A stretch of 64,000 nt of DNA from Podarcis liolepis (Eukaryota). Below, one piece after another: positions 2,705-52,595 of the stretch. The stretch lies in assembly GCA_965112155.1 (NCBI GenBank), contig OZ218105.1. One strand, written 5' to 3'. The notes beneath the pieces were generated by a model that was not told the DNA's origin, did not search any database, and was given only the letters and a program-made list of their open reading frames with translations. The translations under genes were made by a program, and so were the position numbers. How positions within the stretch are numbered: position 1 is the stretch's first letter; each line of letters begins with the position of its first letter.

Positions 2705-3489
2705 AAACAAACAAGATGAATTTTAACAGGGAGAAATGTAAAGTATTGCACTTGGGCAAAAAAAATGAGAGGCACAAATACAAGATGGGTGACACCTGGC
2801 TTGAGAGCAGTACATGTGAAAAGGATCTAGGAGTCTTGGTTGAACACAAACTTGACATGAGCCAACAGTGTGACGCGGCAGCTAAAAAAGCCAATGCAAT
2901 TCTGGGCTGCATCAATAGGAGTATAGCATCTAGATCAAGGGAAGTAATAGTGCCACTGTATTCTGCTCTGGTCAGACCTCACCTGGAGTACTGTGTCCAG
3001 TTCTGGGCACCACAGTTCAAGAAGGACACTGACAAACTGGAACGTGTCCAGAGGAGGGCAATCAAAAAGGTCAAAGGCCTGGAAACGATGCCTTATGAGG
3101 AACAGCTAAGGGAGCTGGGCATGTTTAGCCTGGAGAAGAGGAGGTTAAGGGGTGATATGATAGCCATGTTCAAATATATAAAAGGATGTCATATAGAGGA
3201 GGGAGAAAGGTTGTTTTCTGCTGCTCCAGAGAAGCGGACACGGAGCAATGGATCCAAACTACAAGAAAGAAGATTCCACCTAAACATTAGGAAGAACTTC
3301 CTGACAGTAAGAGCTGTTCGACAGTGGAATTTGCTGCCAAGGAGTGTGGTGGAGTCTCCTTTTTTGGAGGTCTTTAAGCAGAGGCTTGACAACCATATGT
3401 CAGGAGTGCTCTGATGGTGTTTCCTGCTTGGCAGGGGGTTGGACTCGATGGCCCTTGTGGTCTCTTCCAACTCTATGATTCTATGATTC
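2705..3489 (+). mobile_element. CR1 LINE, 5'-truncated and young
   Basis: Uninterrupted ORF2 C-terminus ([13 protein letters not shown]...KRRLRGDMI) ending at 3414, followed by the CR1 3'UTR and (ATTCTATG)n tail. Confidence 0.95.
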
Positions 3490-3670
3490 CACTCAACTTC
3501 ATAATTGTTAACTTTTCGCATTGATTTTAGTGGGACCCAAGTTCCAACTTATTTATTCTGGATTCAACTCATTATGATGTTCTTACACAGGTAGTCATTT
3601 TGTTAACTGACATTTTATGCATTACTCTTATGAAATTGTGGCTTCTGCTCCAGTGAACACTGTTTCTGCT

Positions 3671-9296: not shown

Positions 9297-9435
9297 GTCA
9301 CTGTACTTTCATATGCACATTTTATGTGTAGTTGTGTTGCTGGTCCTTCCAATCAGATCTCAGAAACACATGAAAAGGCAGCAGCTTCCCCTTCAAGGCA
9401 CGCACAACTCTGACATAAACGAGAAAGCAAAATGA
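9297..9435 (+). CDS. MBOAT1: MBOAT1 terminal coding exon
   Basis: ccctacag|G TCA CTG TAC... encodes SLYFHMHILCVVVLLVLPIRSQKHMKRQQLPLQGTHNSDINEKAK, then TGA at 9433-9435. Phase matches the previous exon. Confidence 0.93.
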
Positions 9436-10352: not shown

Positions 10353-11043
10353 TTAGCAGATGGGTGCCCTAAGCATCAAAATGTATTTCTTCCCCCACCC
10401 CCACATAAAACGATTAAAGGTGAAAAATAACTTGTAGTGTGTACCTGTAATTCCCAAATGGTGGGTTGCAAGGAATTTCATGGGCGGGTTTCCTGGATGC
10501 AACAAAAGCTGCAAAGAATTTGTGATTCATGGTCAACAGGTGTGGGGACCATTGGGCCCACATAGACAGTACCTCCCTGCAAAAAGGAAACTTACATGGG
10601 TGGGTCCTCTTTGGTAAAATTACCATAAGAACCATTAACCTAGAACAAACAAAGTGCATGCTGAGTGACTGGCAATAGACATTAGGAAAGGGAAAACCAT
10701 GGAGCAGGCTGGCTGTGGTTGCCCATACAGATATAAAATCAGGTATAGACCGAGGTGAGAAATGTGGGCTAGACAGGGTTTGAAAGAGAATTACAGGCTT
10801 TTCCAGAACACTTCCTGTTTGACCTGTTTTCTATGCTGAGCTTGGGTGATTTCTCTCCCCCCCCCACTGCCACTGTACTCCATAATCTTTTCCTGATACT
10901 ACAAACCTTTCAAATGTTGCCTGCATTCATTATTTCATGATAGCCGAACAAAGATAAATTACTTTGGCACTTGGAAAATAACTCAGGGAACTTGGTGTGA
11001 AGCACTTGACTAAACCGTTTCAGAATATGCTTCCTAATATTCA

Positions 11044-12512
11044 GAACACTGATGTCCTAGATCTGGAAGGGTTCGACAATGCTTTTGGGTGGCATGCATA
11101 TTTGTGGTACGACAAGGTAAAAATTCATAAAATGTTCAAAAACCATATTGTCAGAAGAGCAATATTTATGGTCTGGATAAAATACAAAGACTTATTAGAG
11201 GGTAAGACCCCGAGGTGGCTATCACCAGTGGAGGCCAAGGCTCGAAAAAGACCCAATATGGAGGCCAACTGGCCGAAATATTGGGAAATAATAGAAAAAA
11301 TTGGAGACAATTGGAGGCTGCAGAGCTTGGAGAAACTAAAGAATAAGGTGCGAGATTGGTTACATTACGCTCAAATTCAAGAGGTTTTCAAAATAGACAA
11401 AAAAGTTGGGTCCCAGGTGGATAAATCGAAATTAGAGACGGAATTGTTAGAACCAAAAACTAAGATACTTTCGAGAATGTATAACTTGCTGCTTAAATGG
11501 AACACACAAGATGAGACAGTTAAATCAGCCATGATAAAATGGGCACAGGATGTTGGGCCTAACATTATGTTTGAAGACTGGGAAAGGTTATGGACCACCG
11601 GAATGAAATTCACGGCATGTAATGCCTTGAAGGAAAACATTATGAAAATGATATATAGGTGGTACATGACCCCAGTCAAGCTTGCTAAGATATATCATCT
11701 GTCTGACAATAAATGTTGGAAATGCAAGGAGGCTGAAGGGACATTCTTTCACCTCTGGTGGACCTGCCCAAAAGTGAAGGCCTTCTGGGAAATGATCTAT
11801 AATGAGTTAAAAAAGGTGTTTAAGTACACCTTCCCCAAGAAACCAGAGGCCTTCCTCCTGGGCATTGTCGGCCAGAAGGTGTCAAAGAAGGATAGAACTT
11901 TTTTTATGTATGCAACTACAGCAGCAAGAATTCTCATCGCAAAGTACTGGAAGATACAAGATCTACCCACACTGGAAGAGTGGCAGACACAATTGATGGA
12001 CTATATGGAATTGGCTGAAATGACTGGCAGAATCCGAGATCTGGGAGAAGAAACAATGGAAGAGGACTGGAAAAAATTTAAGGACTATTTGCAAAAACAC
12101 TATAAGCTGTACGAATGTTAAGAATGTGCATGATTTGGAAACTTTAGCTTCAGCAACTAGATCTGATGAACTGGAAATTAAGTTATAAGAAAGACAAGGT
12201 GGAAAATTGAAGTAATTGTATTATGTTTATTTTAAGGCATAAGTGATTGAGAAACAGTATTTTGAATCTAGAAACATAATACTTGAAAGATACAGTAAGG
12301 TATGAAACATGGTAACAATTTGCTGATGTTTTTATTGCAAGGAACGCAGGGTTTGGAAGATGTGGGGAAGTCCAGTTGGATTGGTAAAAATGGTTTGGAA
12401 GGTTGGTTTTCTTTATATACCTCTTTTTCTATTTTCGTTTCTTTTCTTCTTTTCTGTACTACACTTCTGACTATGTATAAGAAAATTTAATAAAAATATT
12501 TATAAAAAAAAA
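11044..12512 (+). mobile_element. L1 LINE, 5'-truncated and young
   Basis: Open ORF2 C-terminus to 12121 with CCHC knuckle CWKC-x8-H-x4-C. AATAAA at 12489, A tail, and perfect 22-bp TSD agaatatgcttcctaatattca (11022-11043 and 12513-12534). Confidence 0.95.
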
Positions 12513-13271
12513 AGAATATGCTTCCTAATATTCAAAACAATGCTTGTAGGTTTTTAAAATGTAAATGGTTAATCCCTGTTCTTTCCATTTTTAAATAATA
12601 TGTTTTCTTTATGAAGGGAACGGGATAAATTTAAAATTAATGGAACTGATGCAAACCTCTGGTCCTGGAAATTTGCATCCTTGTCCCCTGTCTACTCTTA
12701 GCTCATAAGTGCTTCCCTCTGTCTGCCCGCCTTGTCACCTATAACCTATCCGAATTCAGAAAGCCTACTGAGCCTCAAGGATGGAGTGCCCTGGTAGGGA
12801 AAGACATGGGTGTTGCACCTGTCTACTACTTAGGCGCAATGATAATCTTTTTGCCCAAATGGGTTCCACATTCCATCCACACTTCTGTTCTTTTAAAGTC
12901 CTGTTTGGCTACATGCTTCAGAGCTGAATTTGCTTTGATAGTTTTTTTGTTTTGTTTTACAGTGGGAAAGGTATTAAAATTCTGTATAAAGTTGAGGGAT
13001 GAAAAAACGTTTTCCAGTTTCTGGTTGGAAAGGCGAGGGGAAGCTCTGATTTTAATGAGCTGGACTTTTCCAAATCAAATGATCAATGTGAGAGTAGCAT
13101 TAAATCATCTTTTAAAAGGTGGAAGTGAAGCAGAATGCCTTGGGAACCAATGTTGCTGCTGTCTGTTATCACTTAATTGCTGTGTGGTCATATTATGTAT
13201 TTCTTTGGGACATTTTCACCCTCTTCTTCAATCTAGGGATTCTAAGCGCAAATCTTTGTAAAGCTTTTTAA

Positions 13272-13277
13272 AATAAA
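13272..13277 (+). terminator. Candidate host polyadenylation signal of MBOAT1
   Basis: AATAAA preceded by TGTA (13257-13260), at the end of a unique AT-rich UTR-like tract. It is the first non-repeat AATAAA I see after the stop codon. Confidence 0.5.
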
Positions 13278-15289: not shown

Positions 15290-17168
15290 CCAGTCTTGGC
15301 TGTAGGAGATGAATTGGAGAAGAAAGGAAAGAATCCTAGGAGCTCTTCCAAGAGCTGGGACAGCAAGGAGAGAACTTGACACTTATCTGCCTTTCAGACC
15401 CTTCCATTGACAGGATGGTAAACAATGCTGAGTTTATGGGTGGAAACTCATCTCTGGAATGCTGTTTTGTTTTGTGCCCAAGGCTTGGTATATATAAAAC
15501 TGCAATGCAGTGTGTCCGTTCAGCAGGAGCCTGGGTGGGTGCCTGGAGGGGAGTGGCTCTCATACCATTTTTTGTTTTATTTGCAGTATTTATATAACAC
15601 AGTTCTCTGGGTGGCTTTCAAAGAAAATGGTGGCATGCAATTAAAAATACAATACCAGAAAATAACAATTTGCTGCATAATTGGGGTTTTTCCCCCAACC
15701 AAAGCAGAAAGGGAGACAACTGAAAATGTAAAGTGCACTATCATCAAAAGCAACATTGAAAGGTGAGCAAGACTTGTGGCAGGCACTCTGCAGCAGGGGT
15801 GCCACCATCAAAAGGGCCCTTTCCCTGGTCATCCTTTCCCTTATTTCACTTGGCAGAGGCACCCATTTGGTGGATTGGGGCCTGCTGAAGAAGACCTCCG
15901 GATACAGACGGGTACATGTAAGGTAAAGTGATCTTTTCAGTCTCCTTGTCATAATCTTGCTGACTGCAGCACAACTTTCTACAAGGTAGCCAGCTTTGAG
16001 TTAGGAATGGACGAATCTGTCAGTTCTCATTTGTCTCTGTTCCTCATTTTTCCTGTTTCATTTTCTCTGTATTTTTGCATGCGTTTGCAATTTTTTTAAA
16101 AGAAAAAAAATCCTCATGAAGGTGACTAATAAGTATAATAAGTGGTAGTGATGATTTGTAAAGACACTTTCCCCAACATAACTTTTTTTTGTACAGGTTT
16201 TTTGGTGGAGAATTGTACCACAATATTCAGAGAAGTGTGAATTTCATAAATAGCTACATTTTGGTTTGTGTATTGTTTTGGGAAGTGTGACTTAATGGAG
16301 GATCACACTGAAATATAAACCAAACTAAGTTTCTCTCCCATCCTTGGCTACAATTCCTGGAGTTTTCAAGGACCTCTTGTGATAACGGCAACTCCCAAAC
16401 TCTCTGAAGTTTACTTACCCCCCTCCCAACTCTGCATTAATTTATTGGGGCCAACTATGTGCATCCCTCCTCCTTCTTTAAAAAAAAAAAAGATTCCACC
16501 ATGTTTTGTTTTATCTCGGATCAGTCATGGTGAAGTAGAAATATTTGCTAGAATATTTTAAGATGTGAAACCACTGCTATGGTTTCAAGGAACTTTATAA
16601 TACACTCTGGGACATCTTCCAAAAATCCTTGTGTGTGGATAGAGATTTATTTTATGGGAAGTGATTATGATGTTGCTATGAGATTAAAACGGTGTCTCAG
16701 CAGCTACTTCAGATAAATGCTTGCTTCATCCTTGCTAAAACATTGCAGAAGAATGAATAGTAGCTGTTTTCCTAAAGAATAAAGCATATGGCTGAAAGCA
16801 ACTTGACATATTCTCCCCAAAGAGCATGGAGTGCAAAGAGCACAGCTGCCTGGAGGGTGGAATTGCTTTTGTTTCTCCCGTTGAGCTTTTTGTTGGAGAA
16901 CTTGGAACCATAATTGTTTGCTTATAATCAGCCTAATGGCTTGGATCATAAAATAGGTTAATGTGAGGAAGTTAACTGGAAGGAAAGTTTCCCAGCCTCT
17001 CAGTCAAATTTTGGGCGATTAACCTCTCCTATAGAAGCCCCCTTGTACCCCATCCCCCCTTGTTCAGGAGACCCTCCCAGATCTTCTAGATAAGTTTTTT
17101 TAAGGGGAGTGTGTGGGGTGAGGGGAGGAGATGGGAAGCTTTTCCTTCTGTGAACTTCCATCAGTTAG

Positions 17169-17380
17169 AATAAAAAAATTCCTTCCAATAGCACCTTAAA
17201 GACCAACTAAGTTAGTTCTTGGTATGAGCTTTCGTGTGCATGCACACTTCTTCAGATACACAGTGCATGCACACGAAAGCTCATACCAAGAACTAACTTA
17301 GTTGGTCTTTAAGGTGCTATTGGAAGGAATTTTTTTATTTTGACTATGGCAGACCAACACGGCTACCTATCTACTACTGG
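17169..17380. mobile_element. Penelope-like element remnant (inverted terminal-repeat structure)
   Basis: Perfect 77-bp inverted repeat (17169-17245 / 17263-17339) and 13-bp TSD ttccatcagttag (17156-17168, 17381-17393). The sequence resembles recalled squamate Penelope terminal repeats. Confidence 0.8.
17222..17259 (-). ncRNA. Minimal type I hammerhead ribozyme motif
   Basis: Minus strand GUAU-CUGAAGA-A-GUGUGCAUGCACAC-GAAA-GC-UC^AUAC: both catalytic core boxes, palindromic helix II and a 4-bp helix I. Confidence 0.75.
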
Positions 17381-20066
17381 TTCCATCAGTTAGGTTATTG
17401 TAGGAATTTACCGTGGTGCTAAGGAGGTTCTGCCAGCACATCCTGCCCTCTCTTCCCCCTGTGTGCTGTTCTATGGTTTCTCCAACCTACCCTGAGCCAA
17501 CAGGACCAGTGGCCAGAGATGATGGGAATTGTAGTCCTAAAACATCTGGAGGGCCGAGTTTGCCTATGCCTCCTGAGTGGGAGGGCAGCAGGCAACCCCT
17601 TTGTGCTAGTGTGCTTTGTGCTTGCTTCTGCTGGCAGGACTCATTAGCTGAACCCAGCCCAAAATGTGGCAACAGAGGTGGTTTTAGGGCAGCGCAACCA
17701 GTTCCCCCCTACGGGGCACCGAGCAGAGAGGGTAAGCACCTGCCCAGCTATGGGAAAGAGGCAAGAGGGCTCTGACAGGGTCCTAGAGTCCTCCCTCCTC
17801 CTTCCCAAAACCTAGTTAGCACTTGCCCAGCTTTGGGAAGGAGGTGGAGGTGCTCTGAGACCCTGCTAGAGCACTCACACCTTCTTCCCAAAGTGCAGCA
17901 CAGTACAAAGGATAGTGGGCAAATTTTGGCCTCGCTCAAGGCGCCATAGTAACAAGTTTGCCCCTGGCAGCAACCTACCTTTTTGTTGCATCATGGTATT
18001 TGTGAGGTGGGCTCAGAGATGCTGATTGCTGGTCTCTGTGGCATTGCTCTGTCGACCCAGCTGGATGTAAATATGGGCAGGCCCAAAGAAGAGTGCCATG
18101 GCGGCGATGGGCAGAGGACACACACAGACTCTGATGTTGCATTAAAGGCGGTCTGTGGGAGAGGAGAGCAAATCGACCCTAAGCATTACAGAGAAGGGCT
18201 TGTCTTGGAGAAAAGCAATGAGTTCCATTGCACAGTGTAAGACCTGCTGCATTGTCTTGTTGACATGCCCTTAGAAAGCATCAACTCCATTTAAACTCGA
18301 GCACCTTATTTCATATGTGAACGATCACCATAACGCTGAAATGTTGGAAGCAGGAAGGGAGAAATATATGGCCTACCAGTTCTTGTTGAACTTCAGGTTC
18401 TGTCAGCCACAGGCAGCATAGCCCGTGGCCAGGGCTGATGGGAGTTGTAGTCCAAAATATTTCTGTTGTCCAAAAACATTAGCCACCCCAAGGATTCTTA
18501 GGTTTATGTGACCTATTTATTGAGGGTTGTTCAACATCGCAACCGCGTCTATAAATCTGCTTTGCATCAGGCAGGACTCCTATGATCTTATACATGCATC
18601 CATTTCATACAGCCACGGCTCAATTAATGAACAGTCATCTTTTCAATCTCTGTAGAAATCCAGAAGCAGTTGACACTTGGGCTTCTGTCCTAGGTAGGCA
18701 CTGTGGTTATCTGCCAGGGGTGGGGTGGGGTTGAGGTAGCAGAACATTTCTGCTGCAATGATCAAATTTTCCTACTTTGTTTGAGATTTTATTTCCCAGT
18801 GGATTAACGTTTCAGGGCAGCATCGCAGGCGGAGGGCAAAATTCAATTAATTGAATATGAAATATTTATAACCCTGCTCTATATGTCTATCAGAGAAAGG
18901 TCCTTAATAAATCTTCTCATTAGAATGGACTAGTGACTCATGCCTCTCTGCTTCTGTAGTCGTTCAGAATTTAAATTCAATTAATCTGCTGTCCTCGTGA
19001 ATATGATTTAATTATTCGGAGGGGGGAAACCACTGCATTCGCAAGATAATGACACATAAGGAGAGGACAAAAACGGAATAGCCTCTTTTCCTTTTAACAA
19101 TGGTGGCTAATGCCCACCAGAACTGGTGGGGTTGTTAGGAGTCAGTGGGGATGCGGCCAATGAGCAGGTACGGCCTTGTTATTCTTGTTGTGTCTCCACT
19201 CTCCTCCCTTGAGAAGTTACTATGGAAACTTAAGGATTGGCCTCTAGGCCCAAGGTGCCCCAAACTGGCTTTAGATATAGTTTGCTTGCAATTCTCATCA
19301 ACACCAGTCAGCACGGCCATTGATCAGGAATTATAGGAGTTGTTGTACAACAACTGGAGGGCCCAACATTGGAGAAGGCTGCTCTACAGTAAAGATTCCA
19401 GCATGTGCCATGGGGGGGGGATATACTGTGCATTTGTATTACTGTTCAAGGGTGTGCAAAGACATTCGGAAATAAGGAACAGAGCCTGCAAACTCTGTTC
19501 CTTCTAAACCTTGTATGTGACACAGCTGCCCTGTTGTCGCTGGGTTGGCAACTTTTCTGTAGCTGTGTTTTTAACTGTAGCTTAGTGTGCAGGCACCAGC
19601 AGGTTATCAGGGCGGCCCACATTTTTCTAGCCAGTTGGCAACCCTGTTTATTGCCAGGTTGCTTCCCAGACTTTCTGTTTACTTCTATCCAGTGGCTTTT
19701 CTTGAGTTCAGCTGCCTTTTCCCATTCCTAGTATACCAGCCAGCTTATCCATTCAGTTTTGTTTTCATTACGCTGATGTCCTATGGTGTTTCAAATTGAG
19801 TGTAATGTTCCCTCCCCTCAGTTTTAGGCCCCTTTAAGGCACTTTTGCTCTGCCAACTCTGGTAAACTGGCGTGTGCTGTGAATCCAGAGAACAGTTTTA
19901 GCGAATGTGTAATGGCATGCAGTTAACTGCTTTTTAGGCCACATTCATACCATTCATGTAAAGCACTATGATACCACTTTAAACATCACCGGTTCCCCCA
20001 AAGAATTATGGGAGCTGTAGCATGGTTAGAAGTCCCCTGTTCTCCACCCAGAACTACCGTTTATAG

Positions 20067-22320: not shown

Positions 22321-22774
22321 TAGAATCATAGAATAGAATCATAGAATCATAGAGTTGGAAGAGACCACAAGGGCCATCGAGTCCAACCCCCTGCCAAGCA
22401 GGAAACACCATCAGAGCACTCCTGACATATGGTTGTCAAGCCTCTGCTTAAAGACCTCCAAAGTAGGAGACTCCACCACACTCCTTGGCAGCAAATTCCA
22501 CTGTCGAACAGCTCTTACTGTCAGGAAGTTCTTCCTAATGTTTAGGTGGAATCTTCTTTCTTGTAGTTTGGATCCATTGCTCCGTGTCCGCTTCTCTGGA
22601 GCAGCAGAAAACAACCTTTCTCCCTCCTCTATGTGACATCCTTTTATATATTTGAACATGGCTATCATATCACCCCTTAACCTCCTCTTCTCCAGGCTAA
22701 ACATGCCCAGCTCCCTTAGCCGTTCCTCATAAAGCATCGTTTCCAGGCCTTTGACCATTTTGGTTGCCCTCCTC
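22321..22774 (-). mobile_element. CR1 LINE 3' fragment, same subfamily as 2705-3489
   Basis: Near-identical ORF2 C-terminal peptide and a (CATAGAAT)n tail on the + strand. Confidence 0.95.
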
Positions 22775-28280: not shown

Positions 28281-28770
28281 GAGAGCCAGTATGGCGTAGT
28301 GGTTGCTGCGTCAGACCGGGACCTGAGAGGCTACGATTCAAATTCCCACTTAGCCATGAACCTCACTAGGTGACCTTGGGCCTGCTGGGATCTCTCAGCC
28401 TAACCTACATCACAGGGTCGCTATGAGGATAAAATGGAGAGAGGGGAAAACCACATATGCCACTGTGGTGTAGCGTAGAGCCAGTGTGGTGTAGTGGTTA
28501 AGAGCAGTAGGTTCGTAATCTGGTGAACCGGGTTCGTGTCTCCGCTCCTCCACATGCAGCTGCTGGGTGACCTTGGGCTAGTCACATTTCTTTGAAGTCT
28601 CTCAGCCCCACTCACCTCACAGAGTGTTTGTTGTGGGGGAGGAAGGGAAAGGAGATGGTTAGCCGCTTTGAGACTCCTTAGGGTAGTGATAAAGCGGGAT
28701 ATCAAATCCAAACTCCTCTTCTTCTTCGAGCTCCTTGGAGGAAAGGCAGGATATGAATGTATTAAATATA
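28281..28770 (+). mobile_element. Old Squam3-like SINE interrupted by a young Squam3 (28477-28727)
   Basis: Old head GAGAGCCAGTATGGCGTAGTGG; its 3' part (gagctccttggaggaaaggcaggatat) resumes after the (CTT)n tail of the young copy. Confidence 0.8.
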
Positions 28771-51985: not shown

Positions 51986-52595
51986 CAGGGGCAAAGGAAG
52001 AAGAAGAAGAAGAGTTTGGATTTGATATCCCGCCTTTCACTCCCTTTAAGGAGTCTCAAAGTGGCTAAGATTCTCCTTTCCCTTCCTCCCCCACAACAAA
52101 CACTCTGTGAGGTGAGTGGGGCTGAGAGACTTCAAAGAAGTGTGACTGGCCCAAGGTCACCCAGCAGCTGCATGTGGAGGAGCGGAGACGCGAACCCGGT
52201 TCCCCAGATTACGAGACTACCGCTCTTAACCACTACACCACACTGGCTCTCCGGCACCTGGTGTGGGGTGTTGAGGGGTGGGGCGAACCACCCACAGGGG
52301 CGCTGCTATGTATGGCAGACACGCATGCCCCATACGTAGCGGCACCGTACATGTGCCGTACAGATGGCGGCGGGATCCATTGCTCACAGCTGCAGTGGTG
52401 GCAGCGCAGTCCTCTGCTCACAGCGATGGCAAGATCCCCTGCTTGAGGCTGCAGTGGTGGCAGCACAGTCCTCCGCTCGTGGCAGTGGCTGGATCCTCCG
52501 TACATGGCTGTGGGGCGAGCCCCCCGCGGAGTGCCTTCTTGTCACCCCCCTCAGAGATGGCACCCGGGGTGGACCACCCCCTCCTTCCGCCACTG
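51986..52595. mobile_element. hAT (Tip100-like) element with a Squam3 SINE (51997-52251, -) inserted at its left end
   Basis: Perfect 8-bp TSD gttgtaag; right TIR cttccgccactg; internal ~58-bp tandem units at ~52374-52495. Confidence 0.8.

Follow-up and report, generated by a model that had tools for sequence, protein, structure and literature searches.

A 212-bp insert in the window (the whole 64-kb stretch of DNA analysed here) consists largely of two head-to-head copies of the same sequence, and its minus strand reads as a hammerhead ribozyme. The locus raises the question of how such a hairpin arose, whether it moves as a unit in its own right, and whether the ribozyme can operate where it lies. 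A first-pass annotation had described it as a very recent insertion of a tiny non-autonomous Penelope-like unit.

Architecture of the insert

The insert spans 17169–17380 and is flanked by an exact 13-bp direct repeat, the target site duplication (TSD) TTCCATCAGTTAG, which cannot be extended on either side (Table 1). The inverted arms (17169–17245 and 17263–17339) comprise 77 nt each with 0 mismatches and enclose a 17-nt spacer; the geometry originally reported for the insert, TSD, arms and spacer is thus exact. What had been missed is a 41-nt tail, which belongs to the right arm only and is placed between that arm and the right TSD. The insert contains no open reading frame, and no second copy of its sequence was found in the 64-kb window. 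Its minus strand folds at −149 kcal/mol (z-score −23.7; none of 200 shuffles was as stable), and the corresponding DNA hairpin, at −92 kcal/mol, is likewise stable in silico.

The region 16800–17800 was compared with 4 of 24 runs, namely three DNA contig sets, from organisms denoted A (X1), B (X3) and F (X10), and one raw RNA run, also from organism F (X23). Family depth exceeded 5 × 10^5 over 17344–17377 in all three DNA runs and collapsed after ~17380. Past 17261 the family reads run on with different letters (281 reads, agreement 0.92), and the inverted piece is consequently cut at 17261. The junction base that follows, 17262, is A, and the next letter in the family RNA reads of organism F is T; the A may have been added, may have arisen by later change or may mark a subfamily. 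The plus-strand arm lacks the 5′ strand of helix I, CUGAAGA, the bulge and 2 nt of helix II, which bears out the earlier statement that it holds only the 3′ half of the ribozyme.

Table 1. Coordinates of the features of the insert and its flanks.
Feature	Position	Strand	Remarks
Left TSD, 13 bp	17156..17168	+	Exact copy of 17381–17393; occurs once in the contigs with the empty site (organisms B and F)
Inverted, 5′-truncated piece of the putative terminal repeat, without tail, with complete minimal hammerhead	17169..17261	-	
Minimal type I hammerhead motif	17222..17259	-	Agrees with the published consensus for minimal hammerheads and with the turtle example
17-nt spacer (hairpin loop)	17246..17262	.	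Stretch by which the inverted piece extends further 5′, and junction base 17262
Direct, 5′-truncated piece, arm part	17263..17339	+	First letter is base 3 of the helix II palindrome
41-nt one-sided tail of the direct piece	17340..17380	+	Family-derived by depth
Right TSD, 13 bp	17381..17393	+	Matches 17156–17168

Empty sites and age of the insertion

In organism B (X3, record 16) the segment 16800–17155 joins directly to 17381–17543, and in organism F (X10, record 9) the same segment joins directly to 17381–17500. Both are empty sites with one TSD copy. Conversely, organism A (X1, record 1) displayed a filled left junction on a contig that reaches 10 nt into the insert and differs at 1 of 379 positions; the right junction was not among the pieces listed for this organism. 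The flanks differ from the window at 10 of 519 positions in organism B and at 8 of 476 in organism F. Since two related organisms carry the empty site, the insertion is young, and it is probably younger than a split of ~2%, or polymorphic. The proposal of a recent insertion is hence supported by two of the three DNA runs, whereas the mismatch-free arms, taken alone as proof of a very recent event, are a weak clock: even an insert as old as the species split would have a chance of ~0.2 of showing zero mismatches in 90 nt.

A minimal type I hammerhead motif

On the minus strand, helix I pairs 17259–17256 with 17225–17222 (GUAU/AUAC), and the core is made up of CUGAAGA (17255–17249), a bulged A (17248) and GAAA (17233–17230). 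Helix II is a perfect 14-nt palindrome (17247–17234), and the position of helix III is taken by a palindromic AGCU. With C17 at 17226, cleavage is predicted between 17226 and 17225; both the parse of 17259–17222 and this site agree with those given in the first-pass annotation. The features of the minimal type I form are all present, i.e. CUGANGA, the bulge, a helix II opened by G-C, GAAA, the palindromic 15.2/16.2 positions, NUH and helix I. Position 17 is C at this locus and U in 19–31% of the family depth. The motif measures 38 nt, of which 24 fall within the arm and 14 within the spacer.

A descriptor of the minimal hammerhead, composed after the motif had been seen, gave 1 match in the window and none in 60 Markov-simulated windows. 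The Rfam covariance models, named at the outset as a check on the motif, returned no hammerhead family among 28 matches at E ≤ 10, and 0 matches for 17205–17262 alone, likely because helix III is missing. Rfam gave only matches to miRNA hairpins, below the gathering score and generic to any long hairpin, and these were rejected.

Relationship to Penelope-like elements

The insert is very probably a truncated product of a Penelope-like element (PLE). In the available text of 10.1101/2021.04.23.441226 and PMC3846280, a PLE insertion unit comprises an inverted 5′-truncated copy, a one-sided tail of 30–40 bp and a variable TSD. The insert has the corresponding head-to-head inversion, one-sided tail and TSD, the last seen at the empty site, and a hammerhead in a putative terminal repeat (pLTR); the Penelope-like origin suggested earlier is supported by this combination of a minimal hammerhead, an inverted 5′-truncated piece, a one-sided tail and a variable TSD. 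The inversion, the side of the tail, the palindrome at the junction and the strong 5′ truncation are the same as in the units described in the available parts of those two sources. However, the TSD measures 13 bp here as compared to 8–10 bp there, and the truncation of both pieces falls within the hammerhead or beside it, leaving an ORF-less unit of 212 bp with a 17-nt loop. At 41 nt, the tail exceeds by 1 nt the published 30–40 bp range (PMC11167929; 10.1101/2021.04.23.441226, as available). Membership of the PLE class is likely on the non-coding features; four scans of viral contigs and metagenome contigs for relatives with an RT/GIY-YIG ORF gave 0 matches.

The closest example listed is the minimal hammerhead of the turtle Chrysemys picta bellii (Fig. 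S3 of PMC4209133), which that figure presents without ORF linkage. The two motifs have in common CUGAAGA, the bulged A, GAAA-GC-U, a 4-bp helix I and the absence of a true helix III, as well as a helix II that opens with G-U-G and closes with C-A-C. In helix I, GUAU/AUAC at this locus stands against GCAU/AUGC in the turtle figure, a two-sided change; loop II also differs, and position 17 is U in the turtle and C at this locus.

A second point of comparison is PAc, a Poseidon-clade PLE of Anolis carolinensis. According to the available sections of PMC11167929, two RT start sites bracket its tail, its protein, a predicted dimer, cuts both strands of the target and extends them, and its hammerhead is inactive without protein, with no reads ending at the cleavage site. 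The insert resembles this description in a tail that two RT start sites would define, in the both-strand nicking and priming proposed below, in a hammerhead predicted to be inactive, and in the absence of a listed pile-up of read ends at the cleavage site. However, the ORF of PAc begins at stem II, whereas here all three frames stop within ~60 nt of helix II, and the insert thus probably belongs to another family or clade. Animal non-LTR retrozymes, as characterized in the available part of 10.64898/2026.07.22.740005, are likewise PLE-related, non-coding and equipped with a type I hammerhead. Assignment of the insert to this group was rejected, as a retrozyme in that account requires a head-to-tail tandem with at least two complete hammerheads, whereas the arrangement here is head-to-head with one complete motif.

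Family size and fold-back junctions

In each of the three DNA runs, the contig depth summed over the tail was 4–6 × 10^4 times that of the flanks; division by 31 for contig overlap leaves ~1,400–1,800 times. Although this quantity is no true copy number, we take the family to number at least about a thousand copies.

Among the junction rows listed (27 of 299, divided over two tables as 15 of 176 and 12 of 123), 24 are arm-to-arm joins, i.e. they connect either the left arm or the spacer with either the right arm or the tail. Of the other three, one is located in a neighbouring repeat and two are backward jumps within the left arm. The 24 joins represent 23 distinct junctions, one being common to both tables, and all 23 differ, in a listing that is blind to copies identical to this locus. 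Their offsets are negative in 7 cases, zero in 1 and positive in 15, the positive values being partly set by the limit of the reference. Head-to-head inversion is thus a habit of the family, with a new junction each time.

One letter common to both arms (17188/17320) is missing from 94–99% of the family depth. This arm variant is far commoner in organism A than in F, and the tail end (17373–17380) is far commoner in organisms A and B than in F; the enrichment suggests a young subfamily.

Formation of the insert

We regard the insert as a dead-on-arrival product of an endonuclease-positive PLE, formed by double (twin) priming, with a probability of roughly 0.75. The element protein would nick both target strands 13 bp apart, and each freed 3′ end would prime reverse transcription on RNA from one source element. 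Priming of the bottom strand at the distal start site would yield the tail and the direct piece, while priming of the top strand 41 nt upstream would yield the tail-less inverted piece. Both copies would halt early, in or just past the hammerhead, and be joined head to head, probably via ~2 nt of microhomology; as the two pieces overlap by 77 nt, the outcome would be a perfect hairpin. The hammerhead would in this process be a passenger from the terminal repeat of the parent. Both nicks implied by the TSD (17148–17168 and 17381–17401), one per strand, sit just 5′ of GTT.

Twin-priming inversions are familiar from LINE-1, where an inverted 5′ piece stands beside a direct 3′ piece between TSDs and the RNA segments that the two represent are for the most part adjacent. 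The insert, by comparison, has no poly(A), and its two pieces, with their 77-nt overlap, make up a perfect hairpin. For the anole PLE enzyme, a preference for ATT is given in the available text of PMC11167929. As a separate observation, the TSD resembles the cDNA of the tail start at 9 of 13 positions with one gap, a post hoc score equalled by 1.9% of 3,000 random 13-mers.

It is unlikely, but worth weighing, that a PLE copy was instead inverted by self-priming at the helix II palindrome, perhaps with an antisense strand as template, one arm being copied from the other. Such self-priming from palindromes at inverted junctions has been proposed (PMC3846280, available part), and the direct piece does start within the perfect 14-nt palindrome. 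The rare family variant common to both arms would follow directly, but it also fits arm-to-arm conversion or a shared source element. The position of the loop argues against this route. The spacer extends the tail-less piece, so a simple fold-back of a tail-primed copy, which would place the loop on the tail-bearing piece, cannot yield it; nor can fold-back of a top-primed copy give the 41-nt tail. Moreover, most listed junctions of other copies fall outside the palindrome, with offsets of both signs.

A mobilised hairpin, copied in trans by the Penelope protein as a non-autonomous mini-element, is considerably less probable. The unit is young and retains both element ends, two X1 contigs span 17262 with similar geometry, and some listed junction contigs reach 8–16 times the single-copy depth, albeit in one organism only. 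However, contig depth is here a whole-contig mean that is inflated by repeat ends, and the two contigs spanning 17262 have 4–8 other letters and 2–3 gaps. A 77-bp stem would also likely mask the template sites. The 23 junctions among the 27 listed rows differ without exception, which fits independent, truncated integrations of a parent element and makes the inversion likely a by-product of PLE integration; the notion of a tiny unit moving as such is accordingly unsupported. Under twin priming, the 212-bp stub is expected debris of PLE integration, real and unusually neat, and its shape is usual for the class.

The single locus matters little, as one among thousands of stubs. It is nevertheless a clean, lineage-restricted case with a known empty site, in which both nick sites and both RT start sites can be read, and the insert is usable as a presence/absence marker. 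Genome-wide counts of such stubs could discriminate twin priming from self-priming, an open point in PLE integration.

Predicted ribozyme activity and the neighbouring gene

In a model limited to secondary structure, imposing helices I and II while the core is left open carries a penalty of 38.9 kcal/mol for the full insert, and the penalty is still 4.2 kcal/mol once the upstream arm is removed. The idea that the long hairpin competes with the ribozyme fold is thus supported by a predicted ~39 kcal/mol in favour of the hairpin. When two isolated motifs were cofolded, an extended helix II duplex (−30.6 kcal/mol) was preferred over the double hammerhead (−11.1 kcal/mol); this model omits tertiary contacts, Mg2+ and protein, and no evidence on activity is drawn from it. 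Minimal hammerheads are described as inactive as monomers and weak as dimers in the available text of PMC4209133 and PMC6765202. At this locus the motif is predicted to be inactive because a partner for the dimeric fold is lacking and the stem sequesters 24 of its 38 nt. The ribozyme is probably not functional here, and RNA from the locus, if transcribed, is predicted to be a double-stranded substrate for ADAR rather than a self-cleaving RNA.

The RNA run X23, from organism F, gave no listed pile-up of read ends at the cleavage site. In the same run 14 of 52 molecules start at 17268, the centre of the helix II palindrome, possibly as a library artefact of the hairpin.

An MBOAT-family gene (Pfam PF03062, E 3e-8) is located upstream on the plus strand. 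Its apparent stop codon (9433–9435) lies 7.7 kb from the insert, and the ~4 kb first quoted as the distance from the gene holds only if polyadenylation is signalled by the AATAAA at 13272 or 13503. Since the gene reads the plus strand, which has no CUGAAGA, its read-through would carry no ribozyme. About 12% of X23 was read, and no reads were found on the unique flanks 16800–17139 and 17412–17479; as organism F is without the insert, this result speaks only to transcription of the neighbourhood, at the orthologous empty site. The link to MBOAT1 made in the first-pass annotation is therefore unsupported. A scan for bacterial promoters and terminators returned nothing and is uninformative for an animal.

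A regulatory ribozyme switch or cruciform acting in MBOAT1 termination or expression is accordingly very improbable: the insert does lie downstream of an MBOAT-family gene, and its DNA hairpin is stable in silico, but two related organisms do without the insert, the strand of the gene is without the catalytic core, the stop codon is distant and the one library, from an organism without the insert, had no reads on the unique flanks. Equally remote is a MITE or DNA-transposon-type palindrome with a chance hammerhead-like word, which the short length, long inverted repeats, TSD and lack of an Rfam hammerhead match might recall, as the right arm is followed by the tail and thus not terminal, arm length and junction vary across copies, and the motif matches a published reptile hammerhead with a two-sided change in helix I and had no counterpart in the simulated windows.

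Apparent editing of family RNA

A>G and T>C together account for 66 of 122 changed places in the X23 RNA as compared to 17 of 48 in DNA of the same organism label, in counts that cover the whole stretch, neighbouring repeat included, and that set DNA and RNA from different samples against each other. Among the RNA-only rows listed, five A>G changes are nearly confined to one mate direction and one T>C to the other, at 17–36% of reads versus 0–0.3% in DNA. Two of these rows are adenosines of the GAAA core, A14 and A15.1 (17277 and 17278), which read as G in 19 of 112 and 26 of 113 reads, respectively, of one direction, and in none of the DNA. These strand-concordant changes fit A-to-I editing of family RNA from other loci, and the editing check put forward with the initial annotation thus finds family RNA that looks edited, in reads that derive from elsewhere than this site. 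Still, a C>T change at 17563, in 168 of 492 reads on one direction and at 0.8% in DNA, shows how such a pattern can also arise from a variant copy that is well expressed.

Penelope has been described as a massively hyper-edited LINE in lizard (PMC5625713, available part). It is conceivable, though we hold it doubtful, that fold-back integration makes the reptile Penelope family self-silencing, each twin-primed stub being a ready-made hairpin and ADAR editing disabling the core. If so, the fold-back stubs would explain the massive hyper-editing of Penelope in lizard, and editing of A14 and A15.1 (17% and 23% of the reads of one strand) would disable hammerheads of the family. A literature search whose coverage left out most subscription papers found no link of Penelope editing to fold-back insertions or to the hammerhead core. 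Genome-wide stub counts could also test fold-back stubs as the driver of the heavy A-to-I editing of lizard Penelope RNA.

Other repeats in the window

Downstream of the MBOAT stop codon, an open frame of 379 aa (10982–12515) ends in AATAAA and an A-run. It had no significant Pfam match, and we presume that it resembles the 3′ end of a LINE ORF2. An imperfect repeat pair with 83-nt spacing at 17732–17893, which also contains a 62-nt inverted repeat of 74% identity, occurs in multiple copies in each of the three DNA runs. A short repeat of very high copy number, presumably Sauria SINE, is represented by three fragments, at 17480–17581, 18411–18457 and 19306–19363. To judge by the neighbouring repeats, the host may be a reptile of lizard type. 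Dispersed repeats in opposite orientation, 94–99% identical, pair 3051–3494 with 22331–22774, and 2330–2529 and 28474–28680 with 52047–52253. These copies are other young retroelement insertions, and the first pair looks, in our assumption, CR1-like.
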